The translations under genes were made by a program, and so were the position numbers. Under the pieces are notes generated by a model. It saw nothing but the letters and a program-made list of their open reading frames with translations. It made no database searches and was not told where the DNA came from. Shown here one piece after another: positions 5,641 through 25,491 of a stretch of 31,243 bases of DNA. The stretch is from NCBI GenBank assembly GCA_963675745.2, contig CAXXWX010000018.1, positions 1 through 31,243 on the forward strand, in the 5' to 3' direction. The stretch is from Phycisphaerae bacterium (GTDB taxonomy: Bacteria > Planctomycetota > Phycisphaerae > UBA1845 > Fen-1342). Numbering within the stretch: the stretch's first letter is position 1; the number at the start of each line of letters is the position of its first letter.

Positions 5641-5644
5641 CCTC

Positions 5645-8946: not shown

Positions 8947-8992
8947 TGGCTTTGGGTGCCAGAGGTCGCAGGTTCAAATCCTGTCGCCCCGA
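8947..8992 (+). tRNA. 3' half of tRNA-Pro(TGG); att-site fragment, not an intact gene
   Basis: TGGC-TTTGGGT-GCCA anticodon arm, GAGGTC, GCAGG-TTCAAAT-CCTGT T arm, CGCCCCG-A acceptor strand; no D arm or 5' acceptor strand upstream. Confidence 0.9.
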
Positions 8993-9050
8993 TTCGATGA
9001 CCCCTCCCATATAGCGGCAGAAGCCAGCCCGACATTTCAGTTCGCCACGG
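8991..9050 (+). repeat. Cassette left-end sequence, homologous to 19628-19683
   Basis: GATTCGATGACCCCTCCCATATAGCGGCAG...TTTCAGTTCGCCACGG versus GATTCGAGACCCCTCTATAGCGGCAG...TTTCAGCCTGCCACGG. Confidence 0.8.
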
Positions 9051-9118
9051 CGCCAGTCACTTCGCGGGACAAATATCGCCAAAAACCACGCAAGGGGTGG
9101 CAGAAACTAACACGCTGT

Positions 9119-9150
9119 TTGCCTTCTCAGTTCGGCGTGTGTTAGGATTG
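9119..9150 (+). promoter_or_regulatory. Sigma70-like promoter with overlapping operator-like motif
   Basis: TTGCCT-N18-TAGGAT; contains TCAGTTCG-N5-TGTTAGGATTG, also present at 23544-23567 (-). Confidence 0.6.
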
Positions 9151-9154
9151 CGGT

Positions 9155-10723
9155 ATGCTGGTCGTACCGAGCACATCCCGCGTGAATAACCGACATCGAC
9201 TCGCTAAGGCGAGCCGTCAGGCTGAGATCCCCGTACGCCTCCACGTTGTCGGTGCCGAGCTCAGTCTAGCGACGATGTCGTGGTCGGCCTACTGGAAGCC
9301 GGTTCGGGAATACGTGGAGTACGATCGCCGACTGGTGCATCGGCTGGTCCAGCTCAAGAAGTCCTGGCGGTCCATCCTGCGCTTTCCGACCAGCATGCTT
9401 CACCTACGGATGTACTGCTGGCGGTACTTTCTGCTGTTGCATCAGACGCTGCAGATCGCGCGCACCGAGCCGGAGCGTGGCGATCCGATCCCCATGCTAC
9501 AGCGCATCGTCTCGTTCGAGTCGTTTCCAATCGAGGGTAGGGGACTGCCGGGGATCGCGGGCGGAGCGATGTCCAACCGACACCCGGTCTTCCTGCTCGG
9601 GCGTTTGGCGCCGAATCCTCCGCTGGCGACACCGCGGCACCTTCCGCTGGTTCTGCCACTTGGCCAGACAGATCCACACTACTGTTATCGCCAACTGCGT
9701 CTCTCGACGAAGATGGACAACAGCCTGCTCGTCTTTCCGGCGTCGAACATGTCTCAGCGGGCAGCGAGCTTCGGACCGATCGACCGTGCGGCGCGCTTGC
9801 TCAGCAGCAAGCCGGACCCACATTCCTATCCACGCGCCCGACTTCTTGCTCAGCGAGTCCTGATTCCCATGGCGATGGCGCAGCGCCGTGCCGAGGGGCG
9901 GTTTCGTAGCGGCGCCGTGTCGATACTCGATATCGGAGCGGGCACCGGTCACGTCGTGGCCAACGCTTGGCAGGAGGTGATGGCAAGTGGTCGCCTTGGA
10001 GCTCGGGTCAAGGCGTCACTACATTTCATCGACGCGACTGGACCGTGTGCCGGCCGGTCCTTCGGCTTGTCCCGCGAAGCGAACGGGATTGCCAGTATCG
10101 AGTGGACTACGGCTGACTATCGCACGCTGCTCGACGACGATGCTTGGTTGGACGCGCACCGTCCGATTGAATGGGCGTTCTTTTGTCGCGTCTTGTGTAA
10201 CGCGAGTACGATCACACTGGAGCACGTGGACGTCTGCGAAGAGGACGACAACCACGTGCGGGCGGACTCCAATCCGGCGCGATGCCTTGCCCCACACCGA
10301 CAACTTGATGGGCTGGCGGAGCTCGAGGTCCGCACGGTACGCAGACGCCTGGCAAACGGAATCGTGATGCCGCAGTGGTCTCTGACGAGCTATTTCGCCG
10401 CGATGAACGCCGCGAGTGCCCGCGACGTCGGCGTAGTCACTGACGATCAGTGCTGCATTCCGATTCGGCGCTTCAACCCGGCGGCCTTGATCACGGAGCG
10501 AGGCAAGAGCGTGCTGCATCAACTGCTAAACGTGGCGACCGCAACCGTGATCGAAGACCCTGACATCCTGCCAGCGGACCTCGTTGCGCATGCGCGGCAG
10601 TTCGGGCTCAACGAAGCCAGGATTATCCACTGCACGCAGGATGGCGTTCAGACCGAGGTCGAGCACTATATCGTTGCGAAGCAGAACATCGTGAAACACC
10701 TGCCCGGAGAGCGCCTATGGTAG
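9155..10723 (+). CDS. Uncharacterised protein with a class I SAM-methyltransferase-like domain
   Basis: 522 aa; ILDIGAGTGH motif I followed by LHFID; N-terminal half not recognised; alternative start at 9275. Confidence 0.65.
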   Translation: MLVVPSTSRVNNRHRLAKASRQAEIPVRLHVVGAELSLATMSWSAYWKPVREYVEYDRRLVHRLVQLKKSWRSILRFPTSMLHLRMYCWRYFLLLHQTLQIARTEPERGDPIPMLQRIVSFESFPIEGRGLPGIAGGAMSNRHPVFLLGRLAPNPPLATPRHLPLVLPLGQTDPHYCYRQLRLSTKMDNSLLVFPASNMSQRAASFGPIDRAARLLSSKPDPHSYPRARLLAQRVLIPMAMAQRRAEGRFRSGAVSILDIGAGTGHVVANAWQEVMASGRLGARVKASLHFIDATGPCAGRSFGLSREANGIASIEWTTADYRTLLDDDAWLDAHRPIEWAFFCRVLCNASTITLEHVDVCEEDDNHVRADSNPARCLAPHRQLDGLAELEVRTVRRRLANGIVMPQWSLTSYFAAMNAASARDVGVVTDDQCCIPIRRFNPAALITERGKSVLHQLLNVATATVIEDPDILPADLVAHARQFGLNEARIIHCTQDGVQTEVEHYIVAKQNIVKHLPGERLW

Positions 10724-11697
10724 AGGTCACTCTCCGTCAGCGAAAACCGCCAGTCTTGACGCCGTCGTCGTTGCCGTGTTTGCGGCAGGTGGCGACACTA
10801 AACGTCACCGAGGGCTGCGCGCTGGGTTGCAAGTACTGCTATATCCAGGGCTATTCGCATTACCCCGGCGCCGAGCGGGTCGTTCTGTATGAGAACCTGC
10901 CGGAACTCGTCGCGGCGGAGCTGCAACGAAAACGCCGCAAGCCGCGGCGCGTGTACTTCAGCCCGTCCAGCGATGCCTTTCAGTATCCGCCACAGATCCA
11001 GGACGTGTCGCTGAGGGTCATGCGCGTTCTGCTGGAGGCTGGCGTCGAGGTGGCGTTTCTCACGAAGGGCTTCGTGCGGCGGCCGGTTCTGGAGTTGTTT
11101 GCTGATCATGCCGACGCCGTCTTTGCCCAGATTGGGATCACGACGCTGGATCGCGGACTATGGCGGGCGATCGAGCCGTGCACGGCGCCGCCGGAGATGC
11201 GTATCGCGACAATCGACGCGCTGACCCGGATGGGCGTGCATACAACCGCCCGTCTCGACCCGCTGATTCCCGATCTCGCGGACACGGATGAGAATGTACT
11301 TCCGCTGCTGCGGACTCTAGCCAAGGCCGGCGTTCGCGACGCCGCTGCAAGTTACCTCTTCGTTCGGCCGCCGTTCCTGCGACAAGTCGCCTCGACGCTG
11401 GCAACAGTGGCGCCCGGGGCACCTTCGCCCGCGTCCTGGGCAACGCAGACATTTGCGGTCGGCGCCGGCGGCGGCCGGATGATTGGCCTCGATGAGCGAA
11501 GCCGCAGATTCGCTCGTTTGCAGGCACTGGGGGGCAGTGCCGGCGTTCGCATTCGGCCGTGTCGGTGCAAGAACCCCGAGTTGACCGATGAACCCTGCGC
11601 GATCGCCGGTCCTGCCAACAACGCCATACTTGACGTCCAGAATCAAGGCGAATTCACCTTCATGTCCCCGAACACCCAAGCATCGGTGTCTACGTAA
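10717..11697 (+). CDS. Radical SAM protein, spore-photoproduct-lyase-like family
   Basis: GCALGCKYCY (CxxxCxxC), FSPSSDAFQ, FLTKG, RLDPLIP; overlaps the upstream stop. Confidence 0.88.
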   Translation: MVEVTLRQRKPPVLTPSSLPCLRQVATLNVTEGCALGCKYCYIQGYSHYPGAERVVLYENLPELVAAELQRKRRKPRRVYFSPSSDAFQYPPQIQDVSLRVMRVLLEAGVEVAFLTKGFVRRPVLELFADHADAVFAQIGITTLDRGLWRAIEPCTAPPEMRIATIDALTRMGVHTTARLDPLIPDLADTDENVLPLLRTLAKAGVRDAAASYLFVRPPFLRQVASTLATVAPGAPSPASWATQTFAVGAGGGRMIGLDERSRRFARLQALGGSAGVRIRPCRCKNPELTDEPCAIAGPANNAILDVQNQGEFTFMSPNTQASVST

Positions 11698-11704
11698 ACG
11701 TCTG

Positions 11705-11793
11705 TCACGCATCAAGTAACGCGTCCGTCACGCGTTTGGGCAATCTCCTGGCGGACTCCGCAAAAAGTTCTAACCGTGTCCAGTCACTTCGAT
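11705..11793 (-). repeat. att/tail unit 1 (89 bp), encodes RSDWTRLELFAESARRLPKRVTDALLDA*
   Basis: Core GCAAAAAGTTCTAACCGTGTCCAGTCACTTCGAT; colinear without indels with units 2 and 3. Confidence 0.92.
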
Positions 11794-12038
11794 ACTGAAA
11801 AAACGCGATCGCCAGGGGGACCGGCATGTCGTTGTCTGCGCTTAACTTACGGTTACTGCCAGAATTCCAAACGGCGCAGCACAGACGACAGACGATTCGC
11901 GGCTGATGCGGCGAACTCCCTTTCTAGCAAGGACTTGTCGCAGTTCAAACGACGGGCGAGCGGTCTTCGCAAGGCCGATGCCTGGTTCGCGACTGCCACG
12001 GCGGTGTGCGCCAACGCCTATGGGGTTGGCGCCGCGAT

Positions 12039-12497
12039 CTACCGTGTCCAGACCGCCTCACCGATGACTGCGTCGCCATCCACCTGGGGCAGCGTGTCGG
12101 CCTGAGTGGACCAGATGTCCATGCCACGGCGTGCAAGAAAAGCGTGCAGTCGCGTGGCTTGATGTGAGCGTGTGGTGAAGTAGCCGCTCGAACACACCTT
12201 CAGCCGGAACTGGTCGGCATAGGGCTGCACGTAGTACTTGTCCGTGAAGGCGTAAACGACCACCTCGTATTCACCGGCCAGCGCGACCGCGTCAATCGTA
12301 CCTCCGCAGGCTCGGCCGGCGACAAGCAGCGGAAGCTCATCGGCTGGACGGCTCAGCACCACTAAACTCAGACTCGGTACCGCGTCATCGCTGCAGGCGT
12401 CGACGGCAACCGGCTCCCATAAGCAGCAACCGGTTGCCCCAAACCACGCCAGTGCCCCCAAGCCGGTCAGCATGATGGAATGTTGAATCTGTGACAT
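12039..12497 (-). CDS. Putative lipoprotein/secreted protein
   Basis: AGGGAGGT RBS before ATG 12497; hydrophobic signal ending ATGC (lipobox-like). Confidence 0.65.
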   Translation of the reverse strand: MSQIQHSIMLTGLGALAWFGATGCCLWEPVAVDACSDDAVPSLSLVVLSRPADELPLLVAGRACGGTIDAVALAGEYEVVVYAFTDKYYVQPYADQFRLKVCSSGYFTTRSHQATRLHAFLARRGMDIWSTQADTLPQVDGDAVIGEAVWTR

Positions 12498-12622
12498 TGC
12501 ATACCTCCCTTTGTAACTCCTGCGCCTCAGCACGAGGCGGCGAGGATCTGCTCATCTCCAGTTATCATCGCGCGGCGAGCTCCGCCACGTGATAACCCGA
12601 CGCAAATGGTCGACCCTCAAGG

Positions 12623-13999
12623 TCATGGCAACCACTCCGTATCACCAGCAGTCAATCGATGATCAGCCTCCAACAGTCCATGGGCACACGCCGCTCTGGG
12701 TCTAGCGAGCCCGAAGCGCTCCGGACATCGGGCATCGTATGCCGCCGTGGCCAGCGGTCGCAGATCCGAGCAGCGGTCGTCGAGAATGGCGCAGATGTTG
12801 GCGGCGAGAAGTCCGCCGGCAATCATGTTCGTACCAGGTAGTGTCAAGGCCGGATTGGCTGCGCAACTCGCGCTGTCGCGCTCTTCTGCCACTTTGTCCC
12901 GTAGCCCCGGAATCTGGTGCGCGAGACAGGCGGTGCGGCCGGGCAGACAGACTCGCACCTGTGTCGCCAGCGGCGCACTTCCGGCATCTACGAGCGGCAC
13001 ACCGTCCCGCAGACATTGCTCGCTGAGCCAGTAACGGGCAGCCCAGGTGTCCGGACAGGAAATACGCACGTGCGGCCGTGGCAGGTTACGCGGACGCGCT
13101 TCATACGGGATTGCGTACGGCCTGATCGAGGCGCCCCCAGCTACCGTGTCCGCAAGCCGGGCGGCGAAGGCGTGCGCCTTCGGCCGGCCTACGTCAGCGC
13201 TCGTGTAGGTGATCTGCAAGCCGATGTTCTCGGGCGCGACGTTGTCGAAATCGAACAGGTTCAGCGTGCAGCCTGGCCCAAGCAATGGCACCAGTGCTTC
13301 GACCGTGTGGCAGCCAATGCCGCCGAGCCCGATCACGTCGATCACTTTGCCGCGAAGCGCGACGGCCTGTCCCAGCGCGGGATCGTGCCGTTCGCTACCT
13401 GACATGTCCGGCATGTCGCAGGTCACTACGGGAGCGGGCGGGGCGACCGCGCGGACACGACCGGCGTGGAGAACCGCTTCCTGTAGGGCCAGCCCGGCGG
13501 CTATGCGTGAGATCGGGGAGAAGGGCATTCCAGCCGCACGCGAGCCCGCGTCGGCGCGCGCCGCCGGATCTGTCAGCGCCGATCCGGTCCACATGTTCAC
13601 GCGTGTCGAGCTCCATGTGACGGCCAGGCAGAGCGTTCCCTGAGACGTCGCCTGTCGTAGCCAGGTCTGCGCCGCAGACAGGTCGTTACTCAGGTCGATC
13701 ACGATGTCGGCCGCCGGCATCTGGCGCCAAACCGTCGCGGGTAGCCAACTCCCGGGTTCCTGACAGAACGACGAACCGTCAAGCTCCTTGGCGAGATCGT
13801 TGAAGTACTGGATCGCCCCACACAGCCATACACGCCCGAACCCGACGCCTGTGAGTCCGCGGCAGAGCGCCGCGGCCGGGTGGTACGGCATGACGTTGGC
13901 AGGGACGTCGCCGATCTTGATCACCACCGACGTACGGGCCACTCGATCGACGCTCACGCCGACATCGATGACGCGCTGCAAGGCTGGTGCAAGGGGCAT
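12623..13999 (-). CDS. ThiF/E1-like ubiquitin-activating enzyme with tandem degenerate + active adenylation domains
   Basis: C-half: VIGLGGIGC, FDFDNVAPENI, DVGRPKA, CPDTWAAR, PGRTAC, candidate catalytic SC. N-half has degenerate ThiF elements (LTGVGFGRV, PISRIAAGLALQEAV). Confidence 0.85.
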   Translation of the reverse strand: MPLAPALQRVIDVGVSVDRVARTSVVIKIGDVPANVMPYHPAAALCRGLTGVGFGRVWLCGAIQYFNDLAKELDGSSFCQEPGSWLPATVWRQMPAADIVIDLSNDLSAAQTWLRQATSQGTLCLAVTWSSTRVNMWTGSALTDPAARADAGSRAAGMPFSPISRIAAGLALQEAVLHAGRVRAVAPPAPVVTCDMPDMSGSERHDPALGQAVALRGKVIDVIGLGGIGCHTVEALVPLLGPGCTLNLFDFDNVAPENIGLQITYTSADVGRPKAHAFAARLADTVAGGASIRPYAIPYEARPRNLPRPHVRISCPDTWAARYWLSEQCLRDGVPLVDAGSAPLATQVRVCLPGRTACLAHQIPGLRDKVAEERDSASCAANPALTLPGTNMIAGGLLAANICAILDDRCSDLRPLATAAYDARCPERFGLARPRAACAHGLLEADHRLTAGDTEWLP

Positions 14000-14002
14000 G
14001 TC

Positions 14003-15898
14003 TCACCTCACTTGACGACGTCGTTCATTCGCGTCAGGAAGTCGAATCCGCTCCGAGACTTCCTGCTCCAGTTGCCTTCGCAGCGCCGCGCGCTCCGCCG
14101 TCGTAGGCGATCGGTCGCCGACTAGTGCGAGCTGCACTGGAGCTGCTTCCACGCGGCTTCGCCCACACGAACGACACCAGAGCTTCTTCGCACCATGAAT
14201 CGCAGACTCACCGGAGCCGTTCACGATCAGCGAGAAGGCGACAACACTGTTGACGCGCGCTCCGCGCTGTGTGAGCGTAGGTGCACCGGTGGGCGATCTC
14301 ACCAGGCATGACTGTCGCGAACAGCCGCAGCCAATGGCATCGTGTGCGACGCTCTGCGGATTCGGGTGAACCGCTGCGACGTGCTCGACGAAAACCGAAT
14401 TGAGGAACTCGACGTCGGTCGTCGACATGGCGCAGCCGCCGAGATGCCGATGAACGAAGACGATCGGGATGAGTCGGGCTCCTTGACTCTTGCCGAGCTG
14501 CCGAAACTCGCTCGCCGCCGCGAGTACTTGGTGGCCGGAGACTTCTACTGCATCCGACGCGACTTCCTGGCCTGGAAGGAGGATCATGGTCGTCACACGC
14601 TCTGGCTGTTTCTCGTCGGTGGCTCCGAGCAGGGCGTACTCCAGGTCGGGAGCGCCAAAGCCTCGCGTGAGCACGTCAGCGACGGCGAGACACTTCTCCC
14701 ACGCCAGCCAGTCCATCGTGAGCGTGGACGTTGAGCCAACGTGCAGTGCTGGTGGGACAGCTGAAACACGTGGGCGTGATAGTGGCTTGCTGGGCAGGGG
14801 GCGCCGACTTCTGGCCGCAACCGTCTGCGAGTGCGCGCGTCGCGTGGTTCTGCCGCTGGCAATGCGGGCAGCAGCGTCCAGGAACAACACGACGGCCTCG
14901 GCGTCGGTCCATCGGTCCTCGAGCAAATGCGCATACTGCTGCCGGTTTCCGATACACATCGCGCCTACCGTCGACGTGCCGGCCGTTGACAGGAACGCGG
15001 CAGCGCCGGGTGCCCGTTGTGGCTTGTTCGCAAGCCACTCGCGCCGGGTTTGCCCTTTGATGCGGAGACCCACGTAGAACCGGGCACGCGGGTCTTTCGG
15101 CAATCCCGGCACATACGATTCGGGGCCACGGACAAGCACGAAGCGCCCGTTGCGATACTGCAACTGGTGTCCGACCCCGGAGTAAACCACGCTGTACGCA
15201 CCTTCGGATCGCGGGTGATAGAACGAAAGGACGTCTTCGTATCCACGCTCAAGTTCGGCCGCGGAAATCACGCGGTGGTCAGGCCCACCAGCACGCATTT
15301 TCAGGACTCGCCGGGCTACGTTCCGTACGTGAGCAACGTACTCGGCCTGATGCAGCGGGCGCCTGTCGGGCTGCTGCATGTAGGTTGTTCCCCTGACCTC
15401 GGCGACCGGAATGGCGAAGGCCCAGTCAGCGCGCATCGGCTCCAGGGGAACGGCCAATCGGTTTCCCAGCATACAGGGCGTGCGGAACCAGGCCGCCAAC
15501 TCGTCGACCGTAAACCGTGCGCGCGAGCGGACCGAAGTCGACTGATGTACCGAATGTAATCGCTCGGCGAACGAATCCAGCCGCTGCACTACTTCGCCTG
15601 GACACTGCAGCACGGTGTCGTCGCGGGATTCAAGGTACATGAGATACGGAACCAGGTCGCGAGCACAGAACGCCAGTTCAGCCGGATTCCAGGCGCGATT
15701 CATGGCTGGTCTGTCCGGATCATCAATGAGGTTCCGGGCCGTCCAATCCAGGAGCGCCTGCGCGTGCGCTGAGAGAGATCCGATCCGGTGCCAGCGGACC
15801 GGCGAGTCAGACTCGGCCACCAGAACGTCATCGCCGATCAGGTAGACCGGCCTACGGTCCGCCACCTCGAGGAAGCTCATCCCGACCAAGCCGTGCAT
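14003..15898 (-). CDS. Multidomain protein with C-terminal JAB/MPN peptidase and possible E2-like domain
   Basis: LEYALLG...VFVHRHLGGCAMSTTD (JAMM-like E..HxH..S..D); central GAMCIGN resembles the E2 GxxCxG active-site motif; ATG 15898 with AGGAGAG RBS. Confidence 0.65.
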   Translation of the reverse strand: MHGLVGMSFLEVADRRPVYLIGDDVLVAESDSPVRWHRIGSLSAHAQALLDWTARNLIDDPDRPAMNRAWNPAELAFCARDLVPYLMYLESRDDTVLQCPGEVVQRLDSFAERLHSVHQSTSVRSRARFTVDELAAWFRTPCMLGNRLAVPLEPMRADWAFAIPVAEVRGTTYMQQPDRRPLHQAEYVAHVRNVARRVLKMRAGGPDHRVISAAELERGYEDVLSFYHPRSEGAYSVVYSGVGHQLQYRNGRFVLVRGPESYVPGLPKDPRARFYVGLRIKGQTRREWLANKPQRAPGAAAFLSTAGTSTVGAMCIGNRQQYAHLLEDRWTDAEAVVLFLDAAARIASGRTTRRAHSQTVAARSRRPLPSKPLSRPRVSAVPPALHVGSTSTLTMDWLAWEKCLAVADVLTRGFGAPDLEYALLGATDEKQPERVTTMILLPGQEVASDAVEVSGHQVLAAASEFRQLGKSQGARLIPIVFVHRHLGGCAMSTTDVEFLNSVFVEHVAAVHPNPQSVAHDAIGCGCSRQSCLVRSPTGAPTLTQRGARVNSVVAFSLIVNGSGESAIHGAKKLWCRSCGRSRVEAAPVQLALVGDRSPTTAERAALRRQLEQEVSERIRLPDANERRRQVR

Positions 15899-15909
15899 GA
15901 TCAGCTCTC

Positions 15910-16209
15910 CTATCGGATCCCACCGCGGTACGATTCCGAAATCACCACGGTGAGCACTTCGCAACCTGGCGTCGTGTCGCCGTTCGTGGCTATCGGCAGC
16001 GGACCATCAATCCCGAGTGGTGTGCCGGGTCGCTCCAGGTCGTCACCTGCGCGATAGAACTCGGCATCTAGCGGGCGCTTGCTGGAGAGCACGTCGACGA
16101 TCACCTTCGCGGCGTGCGACGTCGGCGCATCCCCCTGAGCCTGCTCAAAGCCGGACCACCCAAAGCCCGCAGCATCCGCGCCCGACGCCTACTCGCCGGC
16201 TGGAACCAC
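15910..16209 (-). CDS. Candidate ubiquitin-like protein ending ...YRGG-IR*; in-frame TAG at codon 7 if started at 16209
   Basis: AGGAGGT RBS + GTG 16209 in frame with ORF 15910-16104; TAG at 16189-16191; GG two residues before the stop; first gene of the JAB/E1 operon. Confidence 0.55.
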
Positions 16210-16392
16210 GACTACCTCCTCAGCCTCCTGATCCACGACCCAAAACCGAAAACCTGAGAATGCGATCGCCCTGCCCCCCAACCCAGAAGTGTCAACCTAC
16301 GACAGGACCGCACAGTTGGCTGCTTCACCCGGGCTGACGTTGCGCCCCCCTCCCGAACAGGCCCTTCTCGTCGCTGTGCTCCGACTGGCCCC

Positions 16393-16441
16393 GGCAGATT
16401 CAAGATCTCGCCTTGAATCTGCCCGACAGCCACGTTATGGT
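16393..16441 (+). promoter_or_regulatory. Promoter overlapped by a perfect 12-bp inverted repeat
   Basis: GGCAGATTCAAG-N7-CTTGAATCTGCC; TTGAAT-N17-TATGGT ending 7 nt before ATG 16449. Confidence 0.65.
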
Positions 16442-16448
16442 ACGGGCG

Positions 16449-17615
16449 ATGATCGACCGAGACTTGGCCCCAAAACTGCGAGCGGCGGCGAAGCAGGTGC
16501 CGGCGGTGACGCTGACCGGCCCGCGTCAGAGCGGGAAATCTACGCTCTGTCGCATGGTCTTCCCGAAGCACGCGTACGCCAACCTCGAGGCCCCCGACGT
16601 TCGTGCCTTCGCCACCAATGACCCGCGCGGCTTCCTGTCTCAGTTCAGCAAGGGCGCGATCATCGACGAGATCCAGCGTGTGCCCGAGCTCACGTCCTAT
16701 CTGCAGGGCCTGATCGATGAGGACGCTCAGCACGGCCGCTGGGTCCTGACCGGCTCGCAGAGCCTGACGATGATGGAGTCGGTCAGTCAGTCATTGGCTG
16801 GCCGAACTGCGGTGCTTCATCTGATGCCATTAGCCCGCAGCGAGTCCCGGCGATTCAGGCGGTACCCGAAATCGCTGGATGAAGCCCTCTTCACCGGCGG
16901 CTATCCGCGCATCCTGGATCAGCGACTTGAGGCTAGCGAGTGGCTCGGTTCGTACGTTCGGACGTACATCGAGCGCGACGTTCGTCTGATCTCGAATATC
17001 GGCGACCTCACCACGTTCCAGCGATTCGTCCAGCTGTGCGCCAGCCGGACGGCCCAACTGCTGAACCTCTCGTCGCTGGCGCTGGACGCCGGTGTTTCGC
17101 AACCAACCGCGAAGGCCTGGCTGTCGATCCTGGAAAGCACGTTCATTGCGTTTCGGTTGCAGCCGTATTTCGGGAACATCGGCAAGCGCCTGATCAAGAC
17201 GCCTAAGTTGCACTTCTACGATACGGGCTTGGTGTGCTGGTTGCTGGGAATCCGCGATCCATCGCAACTCCGCCTGCACCCGCTCCGCGGCGCCATCTTC
17301 GAAACGTGGGTTCTCTCGGAGATCCTCAAGCACCGGCTAAATCGCGGCGAGCACGCCGGTCTCTACTTCTACCGTGATCGACATGGTCTTGAAGCGGATG
17401 TCGTCATCGAGGATGGGCAGAGGCTGACGGTTGTGGAGGCAAAGTCCGGCCAGACAGCCACGACAGAGCTGGTTAACGCAGGTCGACAGGTCGCGGAAAT
17501 CCTCGGTGACGCGGCGCGAGTAGACCGCATCGTCGTGTTCGGCGGCGAACGCGGACAGCGACGGAGCAATGTGAGTATTCTGTCGTGGGATGCCGTGGAC
17601 CAGCAGAAGTGGTAG
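16449..17615 (+). CDS. AAA+ ATPase with DUF4143 domain (COG1373-like)
   Basis: GPRQSGKST, IIDEIQRVP, LTGSQ, GGYP, KTPKLHFYDTGL, C-terminal EAD...VEAKSG. Confidence 0.92.
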   Translation: MIDRDLAPKLRAAAKQVPAVTLTGPRQSGKSTLCRMVFPKHAYANLEAPDVRAFATNDPRGFLSQFSKGAIIDEIQRVPELTSYLQGLIDEDAQHGRWVLTGSQSLTMMESVSQSLAGRTAVLHLMPLARSESRRFRRYPKSLDEALFTGGYPRILDQRLEASEWLGSYVRTYIERDVRLISNIGDLTTFQRFVQLCASRTAQLLNLSSLALDAGVSQPTAKAWLSILESTFIAFRLQPYFGNIGKRLIKTPKLHFYDTGLVCWLLGIRDPSQLRLHPLRGAIFETWVLSEILKHRLNRGEHAGLYFYRDRHGLEADVVIEDGQRLTVVEAKSGQTATTELVNAGRQVAEILGDAARVDRIVVFGGERGQRRSNVSILSWDAVDQQKW

Positions 17616-17732
17616 ACGGCAAAGCGGCGGATAGGTCTTGAAGCTGCGAATGCCTGTTGCTCTCACCTCCGTAGCGTGATTGCAGAGGAGGTGAATTCGG
17701 AGTATGTTCGGGTCGAGTCTCACTCCGGCAGT

Positions 17733-19031
17733 TGAAACTATGAAGCGGAGGTCGCCCCAGGGTGTGAGGCATCCCGGGGCCGTGGTACACCGTGGTCCGT
17801 TGTCCCGGACCATTGTTTCCACACAAGGAGCCTCCCATGAACTTCGTCGGTGTCGACCTCCACAAGAAGACCGCCGTGGTGTGCGTTGTGAACCAGGCCC
17901 GCCAGATCCTGGCGACCCGTCGTCTGGCGTGTAGCGACCCGGACGGCATCCGGAAGTGGTTTGCCACCCTGGAGTCGTTTCAGGTCGTGGTCGAGGCTAC
18001 GGCCAGCTACGAATGGTTCGTGCAACTGGTCGAGCCGCTGGCGGACCGGGTGGTGCTGGCCCACCCTGGCAAGCTGCGGGTCATCGCAGAGACTACGCGC
18101 AAGAGCGACAAGCTCGACGCCAAGTGCTGGCTGAATTCCTCGCGCTCGACATGATTCCCGAAGCCTATCGGCCGGCGCCGCGACAGCGGGAGCACCGCCA
18201 GTGGGTTCGCCACCGTCAGTATCTGCGCGTCCGTGTTGCATCGATCCGGAACCGCCTGCGGCGGGCCTTCTCGAATTACAACGCGGATCGGCCGGCGCTG
18301 TTTACGGCGGCCGGACGGAAGGCAAGCGCGGCCATCGAGCTTTCAGGCGTCGACCGCTTCGCGGTGAACCAGCTCTGGCGTGAACTGGAGTTCTTTGAAG
18401 AGCAACTGGGCGAGGTGCACAAAGCTCTGCAGCAGTTCGCGGCAAAGGCGCCGTCGGCCGAGGCCGCGGCCCGCCGGTTGCTGCGGAGCATCCCGGGGGT
18501 CGGCGAGATCACCACGGAGGTGTTCCTGGCCGAGGTGGCCGACGTGCGCCGCTTCCGGTCGCAGAAGCGGGTCGTGGCCTACGCCGGGCTGGCGCCGACA
18601 GTTCGCGAATCGGCCGGTCGACGACACGAACTGGGCATTACGCACGCCGGTTCGCGGCTCCTGCGATGGGTGGTTTGCCAAGCGGCCTGGCAACTCGTGC
18701 TTCGGGATGCCCATTGGCGACGCATCTTCGAGGCGCTTGCCGCCCGGCGTGGTCGCAAGCGGGCGATCACGGCGGTGGCCCGCCGTTTGTTGTGCGTAAT
18801 GACGTCGATGGTGATGAACGGGCAGGAGTATCGGCACGCCGCCTGACCGGGTGACGCGAAGAAACGGGGATTGACTGGGCCGGGGCGTTCTCGGCCGACC
18901 ACGGAGAAGTCGAGTGAGGGACGTGGACGGAACGACTTTGCGGGCGACCCCGGCAGTGACCATGAGCGTGCGCCCTTCGCGACGCTCGGCGAGTTGAATG
19001 GTGGCGCCCGTCGCATTCGCTTTTCATGGGA
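17733..19031 (+). mobile_element. IS110-family element (possibly IS1111 type); ends approximate
   Basis: IS110 transposase, ~180-bp downstream non-coding region, weak subterminal inverted repeats (ATGAAGCGG at 17740; TCGCTTTTCAT ending 19027). Confidence 0.65.
17837..18846 (+). pseudogene. IS110 transposase with a 1-bp frameshift near 18124
   Basis: AAGGAG RBS; MNFVGVDLHK, VVEAT, KSDKLDA in one frame, continuing as VLAEFL...SIPGVG...YAGLAP..RESAG in another; adding one G (AAG GTG) restores the frame. Confidence 0.88.
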
Positions 19032-19541
19032 CGACTGCATCGTGGCCTGGGTCACGACGGTCGATCCCGAATAGATGGTTGAGCGTTCTGTTTCGCCGGC
19101 CCCCGCTCGAGATTACCAGGAGTGGCAACCCCAGCGGCAAGATGCCCGCAGAGGGTCTCCCTCCGCCTCAGGCTCTGGGAATGTGCGAGAGAGTGCCCGG
19201 CCGTGCGACGCCGGCTGAAATGGGCAGGTTGACCGACGCCGACGGCGACGGGAACGTGCGAAGGCTCTCTCGCCAAACCCTGCACGCCCCACTTGACTTC
19301 GTCCGCTTCGTCGATGGAGAGAAACCCGAGAAAGCCGCCGCCTGATCACAACGCCATCAACGACTTTTGACAATAGCTCGCGCATCCGTCTTCAGTGCCG
19401 CTTCGACGTCCCGGCAGGCCTCGCTCATCTGCTCCGGCTCCACCGGCCCCGACACGATCGGTGTCCCGCGTAGTTCCAACCGGGGCGATTTCAGCTTCGC
19501 GGGCATCTGGGAAGACATCCAAGACGTCTTCTAAACTCTTG

Positions 19542-19630
19542 TCATGCCGCCAGTAACGCTTCGGCGACGCGCTGTGGGAGGCTGGACGCCCCTGCCGCAA
19601 AAAGTTCTAACCGTGTCCAGTTGCTTCGAT
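19542..19630 (-). repeat. att/tail unit 2 (89 bp), encodes RSNWTRLELFAAGASSLPQRVAEALLAA*
   Basis: Core GCAAAAAGTTCTAACCGTGTCCAGTTGCTTCGAT. Confidence 0.92.
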
Positions 19631-19794
19631 TCGAGACCCCTCTATAGCGGCAGGAATCTGCGCATGTTTTCAGCCTGCCACGGAATTCTCCGGTCGGGAG
19701 GTGATTTCTCGCGCTACTGCGCGACTCCGCCGCTCTGCAATGTGGCCGACCCTGTTCCTGGTCCAGTGTCGGCAACGGGCTGCGCGGCGGACTA

Positions 19795-22233
19795 TCAGCC
19801 GGCGCAGCATCCTGGTTTCGGCAGATCGGCGCCGCCACGGCTAGACAGCCCGTAGAGGCGCATCACCTGCCGGTCAATCCTGCTCAGAAGCGCAGGGCGA
19901 CGCGATGGCACCGTGTTGTCGTCAACAAGCGCGGCAGCACACTGCGCAACGGCAGCGCAGATCTTTGCATCTACTTGCTCGCCTGCTATGGGGAGCGGGG
20001 CGCGGCGTAGTGTCTCAAGCCGCAGTGCGTACTGTCCTTCGCCCATGGGAATCGCTCGATGTCTCAGATACTCCTGCATGGGCGAGCTGTTCAGGACGCC
20101 GAGCAGATAGTAGGGGTCGATAGCCTTCGAAGGGAACCCGATCACGATGACGCTATTGTGGCACAGAACGCCATCGGCATCGAACGCGAAGCTGCCAGGG
20201 CGGCCGATCGCGCTTGCAACGATCTTTGGCGCGGCCATTGCCGGTTTCACGTTCACCCTTCGCAAAGCGTACCACGGTCGCTCGGGGTGCATCCGTCGCT
20301 TCAATAGCGGCGACCGTTTCGAGGACAGATACTCGTAAGCGCGCGTGTATTTTCCGGAGAGCCTGTCTTCATCAAGGACGTTGCCCCGGCGATCGTACGG
20401 AAACACGCAGACATGCTGTGGCGCACATTTCCCATACGCGGAGATTCCACGACCGCGGAGCATGGGCACGATCGCGCCCTCTTCCAGCTCAATCTCCTTT
20501 CCGTCTGCCCGGGGCCGTGCGATGACGTGTCCGGAATTCGTCTCAGACACCCGCTGTAAAACGAAGATGTTGTCGGCGCCGGTGCATACTCCGTATGAGA
20601 CGGCAACGGGCAGCCTCGCCAGCGCCGTCCCGACAGACTCCATTTGTTCGAGCAGCGTACGGCATTCGGGCGAGTGGAATCGCCATTCATCGGCCGCCAA
20701 TGCGCATGATGGAATAGGACGCACGACGACCTCCCGATGAGGACCGGCTGATCGGAATAGCGAAGCCAGCTTGTCACGGCACCCACCAGCACCTCTCAGA
20801 GACACATATCGGGAACAGGATCGTTCGTTCGTTTTCCACGCCGTCAACAACGTTGAATGGGCGCTGGCGTCAGGGTAGATGTTCCGATCATCGAACTCCA
20901 CAATCTCGATGACGCGACACTTACTCGATATGAGTTGCCGCAGTGCCCTGCCGCTCTTGTTGCGAAGAAACGCCCCGGAAACGACAGTCGCTAAGCAGCC
21001 GCCGGGAGTCAGCATCTCCAGGGCACGCTCTATGAAGAGCATGTAGAGGTCGAACTGGCCGCTCTGGGCAGTGGCAAACCTGCTGCGGTAATGCTCGATC
21101 TGGCGCTTTTGGCCTCGGTGGAGTCGCTCAAGGCGTACAAAGGGCGGGGCTCCGAGAATGACATTCGGCCGATCCGCTCGGCCCTCAATCGCGCGCACCC
21201 GCAGGAAGTCAGCGCAGCGAACGCCCCTGGCAACTGACTGGATTCGCCGGGTACCCTGGTAATCAGTGCGCTGGGTGAGACAGCTTTCCCAAGCGGTTAG
21301 TAAGAGGCTCTGAAGCGCGAGGGCTGCCGCGACGCGATCCACATCGAAGCCGCGGATGCCGCGCGAGAGGTGGTGCAGCACGTCCGGCGCTCTGAGTGTA
21401 CCCCCCGTTCCAATGAGGAATCGCAACGCAGCCACCAGGAACCCTCCGGCACCGCAGGATGGATCGAGGATGCGCAGCGCGTCCGCCTCGACCCGCTGTT
21501 CGTCCGTCATGAACTTCAGCGCCCGGTGGGTCAGATAGTCAACCAACGGTGCCGGTGTGTAGTGGATACCAAGGTTGCGCCTGGTGCCTCTTGAGCGCCA
21601 AATGGTGGTCGCCTGCGTCTGTTCCACGGACAATTGATGGTAATCTCCAAACACGGTTACCGGTACGTTTGCTCCGTAGACGCAGCATGTCTCGTCGACC
21701 ACACGAGATACCCAATCGCGTTTGACGATACTGCCAGGTATTCGCAGGTCGAAAGAGGATGGCCTGAGGGTGAACGTGGACCGCAAGAGCGGATCTTTGA
21801 TCGCGCGACGTACGGCCCGGTAAAGGCCGTGAACCGACGGACGCGCCGCCCGGCGCAAGCACGCGCCGATGGACGGCGCGATCACTGGATTACGCGCGCA
21901 AATAAAGGTCTGCAGCAATGCAAGGTGGATGATGGCGTCGGTGGCGAACTCAATGGTCCGCGACCCGCTGCGTTTCGGACATGCGGCGCGCCACTCGGCG
22001 ACGATTTCTCGTCGCAGTTCGCGGAGAAACCGTTGGTAAGTGCGCCGCTGCTCCGTCGAAGGGCCGGCGGCACCTTCCAGCAAGTATGGTAGTCTCCGAC
22101 CGAGCGCCGTAGTAGCGGGCATTCCAACAGTCCATCGGCTGTGCCTCGTCCCGCACTCGCGGGACGCGCCGATGGCGGCGCTGCGGCACTGCTTGTCCAG
22201 TAGATTAATGGCCGCGCCACCCGAGATGGGCAA
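19795..22233 (-). CDS. Eco57I/TaqI-like (type IIG-related) N6-adenine DNA methyltransferase homolog with atypical motif IV
   Basis: GIHYTPAPLV, ILDPSCGAGGFL, GFDVD, ILGAPPFV (for GNPPY), FDLYMLFIERA, TaqI-C-like YLLGVLNSS; start may be ATG 22122. Confidence 0.85.
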   Translation of the reverse strand: MPISGGAAINLLDKQCRSAAIGASRECGTRHSRWTVGMPATTALGRRLPYLLEGAAGPSTEQRRTYQRFLRELRREIVAEWRAACPKRSGSRTIEFATDAIIHLALLQTFICARNPVIAPSIGACLRRAARPSVHGLYRAVRRAIKDPLLRSTFTLRPSSFDLRIPGSIVKRDWVSRVVDETCCVYGANVPVTVFGDYHQLSVEQTQATTIWRSRGTRRNLGIHYTPAPLVDYLTHRALKFMTDEQRVEADALRILDPSCGAGGFLVAALRFLIGTGGTLRAPDVLHHLSRGIRGFDVDRVAAALALQSLLLTAWESCLTQRTDYQGTRRIQSVARGVRCADFLRVRAIEGRADRPNVILGAPPFVRLERLHRGQKRQIEHYRSRFATAQSGQFDLYMLFIERALEMLTPGGCLATVVSGAFLRNKSGRALRQLISSKCRVIEIVEFDDRNIYPDASAHSTLLTAWKTNERSCSRYVSLRGAGGCRDKLASLFRSAGPHREVVVRPIPSCALAADEWRFHSPECRTLLEQMESVGTALARLPVAVSYGVCTGADNIFVLQRVSETNSGHVIARPRADGKEIELEEGAIVPMLRGRGISAYGKCAPQHVCVFPYDRRGNVLDEDRLSGKYTRAYEYLSSKRSPLLKRRMHPERPWYALRRVNVKPAMAAPKIVASAIGRPGSFAFDADGVLCHNSVIVIGFPSKAIDPYYLLGVLNSSPMQEYLRHRAIPMGEGQYALRLETLRRAPLPIAGEQVDAKICAAVAQCAAALVDDNTVPSRRPALLSRIDRQVMRLYGLSSRGGADLPKPGCCAG

Positions 22234-22336
22234 CTCCGACGGAACTGATTGCTGCTCACTGCCGCGTTTAGTGAAGCTGCTGACGTGTTTCGTGAGCGCC
22301 GCGCCGACGCCGGACGCAACAACAGGCGACCGGCAA

Positions 22337-23515
22337 TCACAGCACGCAGTTGCAGCGCCCGATGGCGGAGGCTAGCCCTACCGCGTCGAAGATAGCCCGC
22401 TCCTCAAGGCAGAGCCCCACATCAAGACCGGGCTGCATTTCACGGATCACGTCAAGTAGATGCCGATATATGCGTACCCGAATGTCGGCAGCGTAGCGTG
22501 CCCGGCCGTCGCCAGATTTGGTCATCGGTCGCCCCGAAACAAACGTGATAGCAGTTGAGACGCCCAGCTTCGCTTCGGTGAGGCGCGCCGCGTTCGGGTA
22601 GCTGCATATCCCACCGAGCGTGAGGCGATCGAGGCGCACGGTTGTGAGAAGCTCCATCAGGAATCGCTCATAGACACTCTGCCAGTCGGTGATCGGGATG
22701 ATCGGCATGATCACCGCGCGCACCGGATATCCCGCCGCCGCGCATCGGCGCATCGCCTCGATTCGACGCTCGACGGGGGGCACGTTGGCTTCGAACTCGG
22801 CGACAACTTCGCGCGGGTTCAGACTCCACGACAGAATCGTGTGGCCGGCGTGCGGCGGGTCCATCAGATTCTCGACGTCCGCCGCCTTCGTCAGCACAAC
22901 GAGGCGCGCCAGCGGATGGTCCGCAAAGAACGGGATCATGACGCGCGAATAGCCCGTCAGAGGATCCAACGCGAGTCCGTCCTGGAGCTTGCCCAGGTAG
23001 AACGCCGTCCGGCGACCGGCCTTGCGGGCAACGCGGTGTATCCGGTCCAGCACTTCGGGCAGGTTCAGGAATATCTTGACCGTCGGCGAGAAGTAGACGC
23101 CGCGCGTACCCGCCAGATAGCAGTACGTGCAGCCATACGGACAGAAGCCATACGGGGAAAAATGCCAGTAATTGGGGCAGCAGTTGTCGCGCTCCTGGCT
23201 GAGCCCGACGGCGCTCTTGTGCTCGCCCAGCACGAGCGTGTTCTTTCCACGCCGAAGTGCCTCCAGTGGGCCTGTGCAACCGAGATCAACCCGATTGTGC
23301 GGGCGGCCTTCCTGCTCCCAGACCTGCGCCTCAGGGTGAATCTGGCAGATACGCTCAACGAAACGCCGACGCTGCGAATTGGACCGGCTTCCCTTCGTCA
23401 GGACGATCCGCTTTGGGGAGAAATGGGCGGGTCTTCGGGGTACGTAGCGTTCGGTGCACGCAAAGAGCCCGCTCAAGTTCTGTTCCGCAGCCCTCATGCG
23501 CATGCCGCCTTGCAC
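22337..23515 (-). CDS. Radical SAM protein, spore photoproduct lyase (SplB)-like
   Basis: FCPYGCTYCYL, DGLALDPLTG, LTKA, ILSWSLNP, GYPVRAVIMPII; start approximate (23503 or 23497 possible). Confidence 0.88.
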   Translation of the reverse strand: MQGGMRMRAAEQNLSGLFACTERYVPRRPAHFSPKRIVLTKGSRSNSQRRRFVERICQIHPEAQVWEQEGRPHNRVDLGCTGPLEALRRGKNTLVLGEHKSAVGLSQERDNCCPNYWHFSPYGFCPYGCTYCYLAGTRGVYFSPTVKIFLNLPEVLDRIHRVARKAGRRTAFYLGKLQDGLALDPLTGYSRVMIPFFADHPLARLVVLTKAADVENLMDPPHAGHTILSWSLNPREVVAEFEANVPPVERRIEAMRRCAAAGYPVRAVIMPIIPITDWQSVYERFLMELLTTVRLDRLTLGGICSYPNAARLTEAKLGVSTAITFVSGRPMTKSGDGRARYAADIRVRIYRHLLDVIREMQPGLDVGLCLEERAIFDAVGLASAIGRCNCVL

Positions 23516-23543
23516 GCCGCGTCTCCCAGCGAGTGGAGCGAAC

Positions 23544-23574
23544 CAATCCTAACATTAAGCGAACTGATGTTCAA
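23544..23574 (-). promoter_or_regulatory. Sigma70-like promoter with LexA-box-like motifs
   Basis: TTGAAC-N17-TAGGAT with extended TG; contains GAAC-N4-GTTC (23561-23572) and TCAGTTCG-N5-TGTTAGGATTG. Confidence 0.65.
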
Positions 23575-23684
23575 CCGTGCGGCGAAGGCCCAGCGGTTCC
23601 GTCTCATCCGCCGCGGGGTCCGGGCCGCCGCCATAGCATTCCGGGCTCTCCTGGCAACTGGGCCAAACGCGACGTAACATCCTG

Positions 23685-23753
23685 TCATGCCGCCAGTAAC
23701 GCCTCGGAGATCCGTGGTGGCAGGTCGGCGGCGCCGGCCGCGAAAAGTTCTAA
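23685..23753 (-). repeat. att/tail unit 3, left part (continues at 25348-25367 after the IS1380); encodes RSNWTRLELFAAGAADLPPRISEALLAA*
   Basis: Removing the IS and one CTAA copy rebuilds an 89-bp unit colinear with units 1 and 2. Confidence 0.92.
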
Positions 23754-25343
23754 CCCGGATTATTCACGGTTGAGTTGAAAGAGCGGCCTTCGTGTGGTCT
23801 AACTGGTTTTGACCAAACAAGTTGAACCGTGCACGGAGGCCGCCGATGTTTGAACAGACTGAAGCTCAGTTGTTCTTCTCGTTTTTCGCCGATCGCAAGC
23901 TGATTGTCCAGCGTCACGCCGGACAAATTTCCTCGGACGCCGGGCTGTTGCCGATTCGGCAGTTGGACCAGCGGCTGCGTTTTACCGCGCGGCTGGTCGC
24001 CGGCCTGAGCGATGACCGTCACGAACCGCGGCACACACAGCTCGAGATGTTGCGTCAGCGGCTCTACGGAATCCTGGCCGACTACGAAGACTGCAATGAT
24101 CACGACACGCTCCGTGATGATCCGATCTTCAAGATCGTCGCCGATCGATTGCCCGAAGACGATCCGCTCGCCAGCCAGCCCACGCTATCGCGTTTCGAGA
24201 ACGCCGTCACGATCGACACGCTGTGGCAAACGCTCGACTTCCTGGTCGCGACCGGGATCGAGCGGCTGCGGGAGAAGAACGAGGGCCAAATGCCCGATCG
24301 CCTCACGCTCGATCTCGACGCCACCGACGATCCGGCGCACGGGCAGCAGCAATTGGCGTTGTTCCACGGCTACTACGAGCAACACCAATACTTCCCGATC
24401 GTGATCAGCGAGCCGACCACGCAGCACGTGTTCTACGCCGCCCTGCGGCCGGGCAGTGTGCACGCCGCTCACGGTGCCGACGATGACCTGGAATTCGTGG
24501 TCGAGCGTCTGCACGCCGCCCGCGGCGACCTTGCGATTCACGTTCGCGGCGACAGCGGCTTCGGCGTGCCATCGATGTACAAAATCTGCGAGAAAAACCG
24601 ACTGACGTACACGTTCGGCATCGGCGCCAACAAACGGCTGCAGGCCCTGGCCCAGCCGTTACTCGACCGAGCCGTCGCCGAATACGAACACACCGGCGTC
24701 AAGCAACGCTCGTTCACGCACTTCAGCTACCAGGCCGGCTCGTGGGATCGGCCACGCGCTGTGATCGCCAAGGCCGAGTGCCAGGCGGCCGGCACGAACC
24801 TGCGCTTCGTGGTCACCAATCTACAGGTGAACTCCGACGCCGACGCGCAGCGTGTTTACGACGACTACATCCAACGCGGCACAAGCGAACAACGCTTCGA
24901 TGAACTCAAGAACGGTCTGCACGCCGACCGGCTGAGTTGTCATCGCTTCGTGGCCAACTTCTGGCGTCTGCTGCTGCACACGGCGGCGTTCAACCTGTTG
25001 AACTGGTTGCGTGATGACGAGCAGGTGCCGGAGACGTTGCGTACCGCCCAGCCGGCCACGTGGCGGAGTCGCGTGATCAAAGTGGCGGCAACGGTCATCC
25101 AGTCGGCTCGGCGGGTGGTCGTGGCGATTGCTGGCCAGTGGCCACACTGGTCGACTCTTCACACCGTCGCCGTCCGCAGTGGCGCCATCCCCGCCGGCCC
25201 GTAACCCCACCGAAAACCCGCGCCGTCCATCGGGGGAAAGGGGGTCCTGCGCGCCGAATCGCAACACACCCCTCCAATCAACGCCAAACCGCACCGCACC
25301 ATACGCACACACCAAGCAAAAGCCTGACGGTGAATAATGCGGG
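23754..25343 (+). mobile_element. IS1380-family insertion sequence, 1590 bp, 4-bp target duplication CTAA
   Basis: IRL CCCGGATTATTCACGGT; IRR (reverse complement) CCCGCATTATTCACCGT; CTAA at 23750-23753 and 25344-25347. Confidence 0.95.
23846..25204 (+). CDS. IS1380-family DDE transposase
   Basis: GQISSDAGLL, LASQPTLSRFEN, DLDATDDPAHGQQ, RGDSGF, YIQRGTSEQRFDELK; GGAGG RBS before ATG 23846. Confidence 0.93.
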   Translation: MFEQTEAQLFFSFFADRKLIVQRHAGQISSDAGLLPIRQLDQRLRFTARLVAGLSDDRHEPRHTQLEMLRQRLYGILADYEDCNDHDTLRDDPIFKIVADRLPEDDPLASQPTLSRFENAVTIDTLWQTLDFLVATGIERLREKNEGQMPDRLTLDLDATDDPAHGQQQLALFHGYYEQHQYFPIVISEPTTQHVFYAALRPGSVHAAHGADDDLEFVVERLHAARGDLAIHVRGDSGFGVPSMYKICEKNRLTYTFGIGANKRLQALAQPLLDRAVAEYEHTGVKQRSFTHFSYQAGSWDRPRAVIAKAECQAAGTNLRFVVTNLQVNSDADAQRVYDDYIQRGTSEQRFDELKNGLHADRLSCHRFVANFWRLLLHTAAFNLLNWLRDDEQVPETLRTAQPATWRSRVIKVAATVIQSARRVVVAIAGQWPHWSTLHTVAVRSGAIPAGP

Positions 25344-25347
25344 CTAA

Positions 25348-25491
25348 CCGTGTCCAGTTACTTCGATCTTTCGCAGAAACGGGCCCTTCGGCGAGAACGT
25401 CGAAGGGCTTTCTTATTTCGGGAACGAGAGTTACGCCGTCGAGGCGAACGTTCAAACACACGATCTCGAGCAAGCGGCGCTTGGCGCGGTG
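25348..25491 (-). pseudogene. 3' remnant of a large serine recombinase-type gene
   Basis: HRAKRRLLEIVCLNVRLDGVTLVPEIRKPFDVLAEGPVSAKDRSNWTR, recognised as the C-terminal region of tRNA-associated large serine recombinases; catalytic N-terminal region absent. Confidence 0.7.

Follow-up and report, generated by a model that had tools for sequence, protein, structure and literature searches.

What protein once ended in the peptide that is encoded, three times over, at the cassette borders behind a truncated tRNA gene of a Planctomycetota genome? The locus lies on a contig of a Phycisphaerae bacterium that was analysed over its complete length of 31,243 bp (contig C18; hereafter the window) and belongs to a 5.2-Mb assembly (G000; 28 contigs, ~63% GC, completeness 91%). 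A repeat search of the window gave an 81-nt repeat family at 11695, 19532 and 23675, and six-frame translation of the three ~97-bp units there gives a 28-residue minus-strand peptide whose stop lies at the identical position. Here, we show that 1) in one family of large serine recombinases (LSRs) the crossover lies inside the recombinase open reading frame (ORF), 2) the enzyme ends in about five residues read off the tRNA antisense (RGDxI and a stop) where the element lies directly at the tRNA gene, and in a ~28-residue tail in the attP configuration or where another element lies between LSR and tRNA, and 3) the window holds three LSR-less cassettes behind tRNA-Pro(TGG), each ending in a tail unit, in an array closed by a dead remnant of ~45 LSR codons. 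A unit is probably the element-side (attP-type) half attachment site together with the last 28 LSR codons of Planctomycetota integrative elements that insert at tRNA-Pro 3' ends, the window being a tandem series of their integrase-less cassettes.

Tail units and their coding signal

A preliminary description of the locus, made from its letters alone, had claimed three peptides of equal length with a common stop. This is borne out, for unit 3 only once an insertion sequence (IS) has been removed in silico: in its present state unit 3 reads ...NRE, stop, SGLELFAAGAADLPPRISEALLAA, stop, and RSNWTRLELF... is obtained only after the removal. The feature under study extends to 25491 because this IS (23754-25343) splits unit 3. 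It is of the IS1380 type, with terminal inverted repeats CCCG[C/G]ATTATTCACCG, and diverged copies of such an IS occur at higher summed depth in the contigs of public sequencing runs.

Searched with a profile of the three units, the 5.2-Mb genome yielded exactly seven strong copies (E 3e-27 to 6e-12; next E 0.56), three in the window, one on contig C12 and three on C10, where two stand behind tRNA-Pro(CGG) and one behind tRNA-Pro(GGG); units were found downstream of all three tRNA-Pro loci of the genome. The same repeat is present in named records of Planctomycetota metagenome-assembled genomes (Pirellulales, Phycisphaerae, Fuerstiella). A weak eighth unit-like match (nhmmer E 0.56; C26, 666118-666189; RRDWMLLELLAGGSTRLSARAVEA) is located ~2.8 kb from tRNA-Ala(CGC). 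The C12 copy belongs to a 285-bp stretch (C12 1945-2228) that is 94% identical to window positions 19381-19658 and covers a cassette end, the unit and the start of the flanking sequence termed E-end below; it lies ~10 kb downstream of the transfer-messenger RNA (tmRNA) gene (12013-12374), beside fragments of an rve/Mu-type transposase and a relaxase-like gene.

When the seven copies are compared, the first, second and third codon positions show 124/106/222 differences, and differing codon pairs in the peptide frame divide into 137 synonymous vs 183 non-synonymous, compared with about 44 vs 264 in four of the five other frames. Sixteen distinct 28-codon tails from four genomes gave a ratio of non-synonymous to synonymous polymorphism (pN/pS) of 0.44 when read in the peptide frame, or 0.49 if only codons 11-27 are counted. 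Four other frames had ratios of 0.86-1.51; the antisense frame with the wobble positions in common reached 0.45, but one copy has a stop in it. The last codons, ALLAA and stop, vary synonymously in the seven copies (TTA/TTG, CTG/CTT/CTC, GCG/GCT, stop TGA/TAA). Coding selection on the tails, which the preliminary description had suggested be checked by dN/dS, is therefore supported by these comparisons, through codon-position bias, pN/pS and the synonymous variation of the last codons. Such conservation of orphan units would reflect a history as working gene ends, although a continuing role in re-tailing a neighbouring recombinase is also possible.

In the window, no recombinase gene leads into the units. 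The tail frame of unit 1 follows a stop 44 codons further up, and that of unit 2 is preceded by 98 open codons, which overlap the end of a methylase gene in another frame and have no Pfam match. Units 1 and 2 are preceded by non-coding or unrelated sequence. RGDRI followed by a stop, which had been reported for the frame read into the tRNA fragment, is found at 8974-8991 as the antisense of the tRNA-Pro(TGG) 3' fragment, and its frame has a stop 15 codons upstream.

A recombinase family with two kinds of C-terminus

The protein behind the tails was identified by searching the unit profile against 1.84 billion representative proteins. This gave 11 matches at E<=1e-3, mostly short chance ORFs; two of them, P0004 (224 aa, N-terminus cut) and P0009, are LSR C-terminal fragments ending ...VTLCLEKRKPFSLLAERLPVRTS/RSDWTRLELFAAGATGLPPRVADALLAA, the slash marking the unit boundary. 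P0004, a metagenomic LSR fragment, has the C-terminus ...RKPFSLLAERLPVRTS/RSDWTRLELFAAGATGLPPRVADALLAA and carries exactly the LLAA tail. When the search was restricted to longer proteins, one chance fusion only was returned (P0001, a 75-aa ORF). Full-length relatives, such as the LSRs of genomes G001 and G136, are ~500 aa long with Resolvase, Recombinase and Zn_ribbon_recom domains, by which the family is judged a bona fide LSR. P0004 was matched in 71 of the 279 genomes of the order, and its matches to full-length ORFs end at residues 199-203, that is, at the unit boundary.

The C-terminal classes were counted on the 30 best LSR loci. At 26 of these, a tRNA-Pro (TGG, CGG or GGG) is convergent with the LSR and overlaps its stop, and the protein ends ...SRGD[R/W/K]I, or ...RGDRIRTCDLL.PNQAL where the T-loop is without TGA; two loci (G136, G167) lack a tRNA and code for a long tail, RGDSTP[I/V]ELFVQGIR..., and the remaining two are at contig ends. 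Database relatives of full length give a similar picture: 54 of 69 end R-G-x-x-I, eight are tRNA-read variants, five have long unrelated tails and two are undetermined, all classed by protein sequence pattern (20 of the 54 by eye) and without DNA for a check of the tRNA. The expected split of C-termini into a tRNA-read and a tail class thus holds for the loci (26/30 vs 2/30), whereas the LAA ending that was part of the claim is not general, other tail types of the family ending ...TRTLLP, ...LQLSA and ...ALASV.

In the window, unit 3 is the one that still adjoins LSR sequence. The remnant (25366-25485) has 46.5% identity to residues 519-561 of the G001 LSR (tblastn E 8e-7) and corresponds to P0004 residues 157-203; its frame closes at 25578, and across the boundary with unit 3 the sequence runs ...CLNVRLDGVTLVPEIRKPFDVLAEGPVSAKD/RSNW.... 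The statement that each cassette end encodes a recombinase tail is thus upheld by homology to the LSR C-terminus in P0004, but no LSR reads into units 1 and 2, and a remnant is present only at unit 3. The window cassettes encode no recombinase; the LSR sequence present is limited to the ~45 codons joined to unit 3, and unit 3 is itself split by the IS. The proposed swap of tails by an inserted cassette does occur in G136, where an intact LSR receives its tail from a cassette lying ahead of it; there the LSR with tail is followed by a 3.2-kb mercury-resistance cassette (MerT/MerA-like) and then by a second tail unit.

Intact LSRs joined to the window's own tail type were sought in several ways. 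Among 20 loci of a pattern scan with one genome per species, none had an intact LSR whose frame continues into a unit of this nucleotide type, and three had X-like remnants; regex scans of the distal ends of the intact LSR elements L075, L076, L098 and L099 revealed no tail unit, and tblastn at the same elements gave chance-level matches only, among the matches listed. The sole other serine recombinase of the assembly (C16, a 757-aa open frame) was rejected as a source of the tails, its C-terminus being unrelated. The sequence KPFDVLAEG upstream of unit 3 had at one point been taken for merely a conserved chromosomal tRNA-Pro terminator, a view given up once P0004 identified it as part of the LSR coding sequence. 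Its codons form a perfect 8-bp hairpin, GCCCTTCG…CGAAGGGC, followed by TTTCTTATTTC on the tRNA strand (window 25385-25412; L073 about 6395-6425), and in G136 a different 10-bp stem stands at the same codons (GCCGTTCTGC…GCAGAACGGC) in a compensatory pattern. The hairpin and T-run inside the recombinase gene may serve as the terminator of the tRNA on the other strand.

The endings also bear on the degron that the preliminary description had read into two of the tails. Units 2 and 3 end LLAA and unit 1 LLDA; an LLAA end is present in 10 of the 16 distinct tails, with synonymously varied codons. The host tmRNA tag is ANNGYRLAA, and a clpX gene is present with a score above the family cut-off. A degron is therefore plausible as far as sequence goes, and the LLAA end as a ClpXP degron or directionality switch is put forward as a hypothesis only.

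Half-sites, cassette array and competing explanations

In the recombinase direction, the tRNA end reads CGGGGCGACAGGA-TTTGAAC and the unit CGAAGCAACTGGA-CACGG-TTAGAAC, a comparison that covers the right-hand half-sites only. The inner 13 nt are identical at 9 of 13 positions, and in the unit the motif TT[A/T]GAAC is displaced outward by 5 nt; the tail type of G136 behaves alike. According to the part of Rutherford et al. (2013, PMC3783163) available to us, this same relation holds between attP and attB half-sites of serine integrases. All junctions have T/CG at the boundary in common. Exchange would take place at the shared T/CG adjoining the acceptor end, the exact crossover dinucleotide being putative.

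With junctions written left half/right half in tRNA orientation, the order of the array is tRNA fragment/E-end (8996-9100), cassette A, unit 1/unrelated sequence, cassette B, unit 2/E-end (19629-19731), cassette C, unit 3/LSR remnant (Table 1). The three cassettes are 2.6-7.8 kb long, none contains a recombinase, and further arrays stand on C10 at tRNA-Pro(CGG) and tRNA-Pro(GGG). The E-end (…TATAGCGGCAG…CATGTTTTCAG…GCCACGG…) has been conserved both between cassettes and downstream of tRNA-Pro genes of different isoacceptor type; it recurs behind tRNA-Pro(CGG) on C10, tRNA-Pro(TGG) in G031 and tRNA-Pro(GGG) in G002, and several copies contain in-frame stops. Cassette end, native flank, promoter or binding site are candidates for its role. 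On C10, a class-III aminotransferase ORF (L001, 3002-4696) stays open for 159 codons past its domain end, crosses the E-end and runs antisense through the whole tRNA-Pro(CGG) gene.

Table 1 Features of the window and of related E-end copies (positions in the window unless a contig is named)
Feature	Position	Strand	Remarks
Tyrosine integrase	2-799		runs off contig; Pfam; part of island 1-8995
Major capsid protein	1729-3078		island 1-8995
Small terminase	4503-4937		island 1-8995
Primase/AAA_25 helicase	5645-7663		island 1-8995
tRNA-Pro(TGG) 3' fragment	8945-8995	+	anticodon stem to acceptor end; B-type half-site
E-end copy 1	8996-9100		~100 bp, conserved, non-coding; directly 3' of tRNA-Pro end; read as left end of cassette A; nhmmer E 9e-24
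Cassette A cargo	9101-11704
522-aa protein (cassette A)	9155-10723	+	no Pfam match
Radical SAM protein (cassette A)	10717-11697	+
Unit 1	11705-11791	-	28 tail codons and stop, RSDWTRLELFAESARRLPKRVTDALLDA (…LLDA); tRNA-proximal ~25 nt is P-type half-site
Cassette B cargo	11792-19541		164-aa ORF and 653-aa ORF among contents
ThiF/E1-like protein (cassette B)	12623-13999
DUF4143/PDC-S01 ATPase (cassette B)	16413-17615
IS110-family transposase (cassette B)	17956-18846
Unit 2	19542-19628	-	28 tail codons and stop, RSNWTRLELFAAGASSLPQRVAEALLAA (…LLAA)
E-end copy 2	19629-19731		abuts unit 2; cassette B/C junction
Cassette C cargo	19732-23684
Eco57I/type IIG-like methyltransferase (cassette C)	19795-22233	-
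SPL-like radical SAM protein (cassette C)	22337-23515	-
Unit 3, distal part	23685-23753	-	…LELFAAGAADLPPRISEALLAA, stop
IS1380-type insertion sequence	23754-25343	+	splits unit 3; TTAG duplication at 23750-23753 and 25344-25347
DDE_Tnp_1_4 transposase of the IS	23822-25204	+	Pfam, E 6e-124
Unit 3, proximal part	25348-25365	-	codons RSNWTR
LSR 3' remnant	25366-25485	-	…CLNVRLDGVTLVPEIRKPFDVLAEGPVSAKD, in frame with unit 3; ~45 codons when counted over 25357-25485; homology, weaker match to 25515
E-end copies elsewhere in the assembly	C10 91114-91226; C12 1878-1982

The order in which the array grew can be traced in G031, where a cassette 77% identical to cassette C over 3.8 kb is the sole one and lies directly at tRNA-Pro(TGG), compared with third place in the window. 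The homology runs through the unit and about 95-115 bp of LSR remnant, then ends. Therefore, cassettes A and B entered later, between cassette C and the tRNA. We suggest that the array was built by accretion, that is, by successive site-specific insertions at the tRNA-proximal junction, through an enzyme that would have acted in trans and since been lost from the assembly, similar to what has been proposed for the integrase-less islands at Dehalococcoides ssrA. The switch in which the gene spans the crossover is found at the family level; the window is without an intact ORF, so the switch is not operative there, and its tails are read as marking cassette borders only.

Several observations weigh against units as attP-type half-sites of this LSR family. 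The left arms (X, E, Y1) have no clear common half-site motif. The type-1 LLAA tail is present in none of the 69 full-length relatives, and only P0004 and P0009 tie it to an LSR; within the assembly itself, tblastn with two full LSRs found no intact family member (nothing at E<0.01). Unit 3 is broken by the IS, and therefore at least this copy is not in use. The E-end may be either a cassette end or native tRNA flank, and either a B'-type or a P'-type arm; in G002, tRNA-Pro(GGG) is joined to an E-end, and no unit was detected within 17 kb. To our knowledge, canonical serine integrases recombine attP x attB only, and insertion into an occupied site would therefore need relaxed specificity.

The main rival to accretion is an integron-like platform, which we consider unlikely. 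It assumes a resident LSR beside tRNA-Pro, with the E-end as native flank and tRNA/E as the empty attB; circular unit/E cassettes would be captured between tRNA and LSR by an attL x attR-type reaction, and the first cassette would supply the tail. The junction types tRNA/E, unit/E and unit/X fit this scheme, as does the junction in G002. Chromosomal unit/X junctions mostly have a truncated LSR (window, G031, G008, L087, L093), which would be expected if an active full-length enzyme deletes the cassette between attB and attP, and in G117 an LSR stands only ~1.9 kb from tRNA-Met, where a motif scan found no tail. Yet E-ends that are ~80% similar occur behind three tRNA-Pro isoacceptor genes and in different genera, and therefore a mobile end fits better than a native flank. 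Moreover, capture would need a reaction that normally requires a directionality factor in serine integrases, and the D5-type primase gene upstream of the G136 LSR points to a mobile element rather than a resident gene.

Three further alternatives concern the units themselves. Were they 3' ends displaced from an ordinary protein-coding gene of the chromosome, targeted by islands that each bring a replacement end as at tRNA genes, then their equal length, common stop, coding-type conservation and tandem arrangement would follow; this is nonetheless very improbable, as no intact gene of the host has the C-terminal peptide, the long proteins that do have it are LSR fragments only, and the units stand behind three different tRNA-Pro genes. 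We give as little credence to a stand-alone micro-ORF expressed from the E-end as a protein of ~30-35 aa. The C12 copy has an in-frame ATG seven codons upstream, with GGAGG before it, and several E-ends contain GGAGG-like runs, but a conserved start is lacking, with no in-frame start codon in units 1-3 or in most of the other copies, and in P0004 the same peptide is the C-terminus of a 500-aa enzyme. A cassette-like array with ~97-bp repeats at the cassette ends would also suit integron attC-type sites, or a structured DNA or RNA element of another kind whose peptide is incidental. This reading was rejected and is scarcely credible: the units show no folding advantage over shuffled sequence, whichever strand is taken (z +1.43, +1.49, -0.72, -0.97), have no R''/R' inverted core and are accompanied by no IntI, the window's sole tyrosine recombinase (2-799) being part of the adjacent prophage-like island; three-base periodicity and the conserved stop favour coding.

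Returning to the LSR tails, we entertain, with more doubt than confidence, that they sense the state of the element. The 28-residue tail, carried by a free element or one with a cassette ahead, would make the enzyme short-lived via LLAA or bias it to attP x attB, and the five tRNA-encoded residues would leave it stable or permissive for other pairings; integrase-less cassettes would keep a spare tail since their insertion ahead of an integrase re-tails it, changing whether the array is fixed or mobilised. If true, this would be a serine-recombinase, tRNA-anchored counterpart of the integron for defence cargo; the cargo of the window cassettes is read as defence-type.

Present-day movement of the cassettes was sought in public runs, as contigs only. 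These gave no sign of excision, none being cleanly joined across a whole cassette. Two joints, 8993 to 25382 and 11793 to 25382, have 14 unrelated letters between sides of 26-32 nt, and a third that goes back, 19581 to 11758, looks like a hybrid unit; rather than to excision in this genome, we ascribe the three joints to related elements from other members of the sampled community.

The tRNA-Pro(TGG) gene has a second, independent user. A prophage- or satellite-like island occupies 1-8995, its right end being the tRNA-Pro(TGG) 3' fragment; it entered the gene at the anticodon-stem region and left a 50-nt 3' fragment (8945-8995), and ARAGORN found no whole tRNA in the window. Beyond the array, a minus-strand ORF (27943-31242, >1,099 aa) runs off the contig end with seven FG-GAP repeats, a dockerin domain and internal ~40-nt repeat families.

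Relation to known systems

The principle of an attachment site inside a gene whose end changes on integration is already known, from a tyrosine integrase (Mx8) and a phage repressor (BPs). The integrase of Mx8 is a tyrosine recombinase. As far as the accessible text of PMC6070905 reports (citing Tojo 1996 and Magrini 1999), attP of this myxophage is contained in the gene for its integrase, integration gives rise to a recombined version of that gene with a different 3' end, and the resulting integrase is still active with changed specificity; an integrase-less cassette array with spare tails, as found here, is not described in that text. In mycobacteriophage BPs and its relatives, attP likewise lies in an ORF, and integration strips 33 C-terminal residues with an ssrA-like tag, which sets protein stability (PMC4557955, portions consulted). 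There the split gene is that of a repressor; here it is that of a recombinase, for which we infer a degron only from the LLAA end. The actinophage analogy of the preliminary description, being tyrosine-type, does not carry over to the enzyme here, a serine recombinase.

Closer in layout are the islands at Dehalococcoides ssrA with the serine recombinase DsiB. In the sections of McMurdie et al. (2011, PMC3146451) at hand, these form a tandem series downstream of the tDNA, with repeats of the tDNA 3' end as borders and a ~540-aa serine recombinase of the DsiB type on the reverse strand beside attL; some have no integration module and were interpreted as cis-mobilisable elements from accretion. 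The window resembles them, as those sections present them, in its tandem recombinase-less elements behind a tDNA with an att repeat at each border. It differs in that Dehalococcoides islands target tmRNA with a 20-bp repeat, compared with tRNA-Pro and a 97-bp unit with 28 conserved codons here, and an ORF spanning the site or alternative C-termini are not among the features described in the same sections (PMC3146451). The phage LSRs LI/A118, phiC31 and Bxb1, in the extract of PMC3783163 available, share the domain set and the 5-bp shift of the zinc-ribbon-type motif between attP and attB, whereas neither a position of their att sites within the integrase gene nor one at tRNA genes is described there.

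Here, a serine-integrase family that occurs in one Planctomycetota order (71/279 genomes) uses the genes of all three tRNA-Pro isoacceptors as targets, with an enzyme C-terminus that depends on recombination state by design. Tyrosine integrases are the enzymes to which islands at tRNA genes are usually ascribed. Tyrosine enzymes aside, the Islander study (2014, PMC4383910) states that tRNA-gene targeting by serine integrases was not known, and our limited literature search found no description of a serine integrase spanning attP at tRNA genes. Should stability or directionality prove to be under the control of the tail, serine integrases of this kind would have a directionality switch that works without a factor, which would bear on the regulation of serine integrases and their use in genome engineering. 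Orphan tails may further serve as a signature for integrase-less cargo cassettes (restriction-modification-like, E1-like, PDC-S01, mercury resistance) that integrase-keyed island finders may miss. What the window adds is that integrase-less cassettes carry orphan tails, at each of the three tRNA-Pro genes, and that the tails have an LLAA end that matches the host tag.

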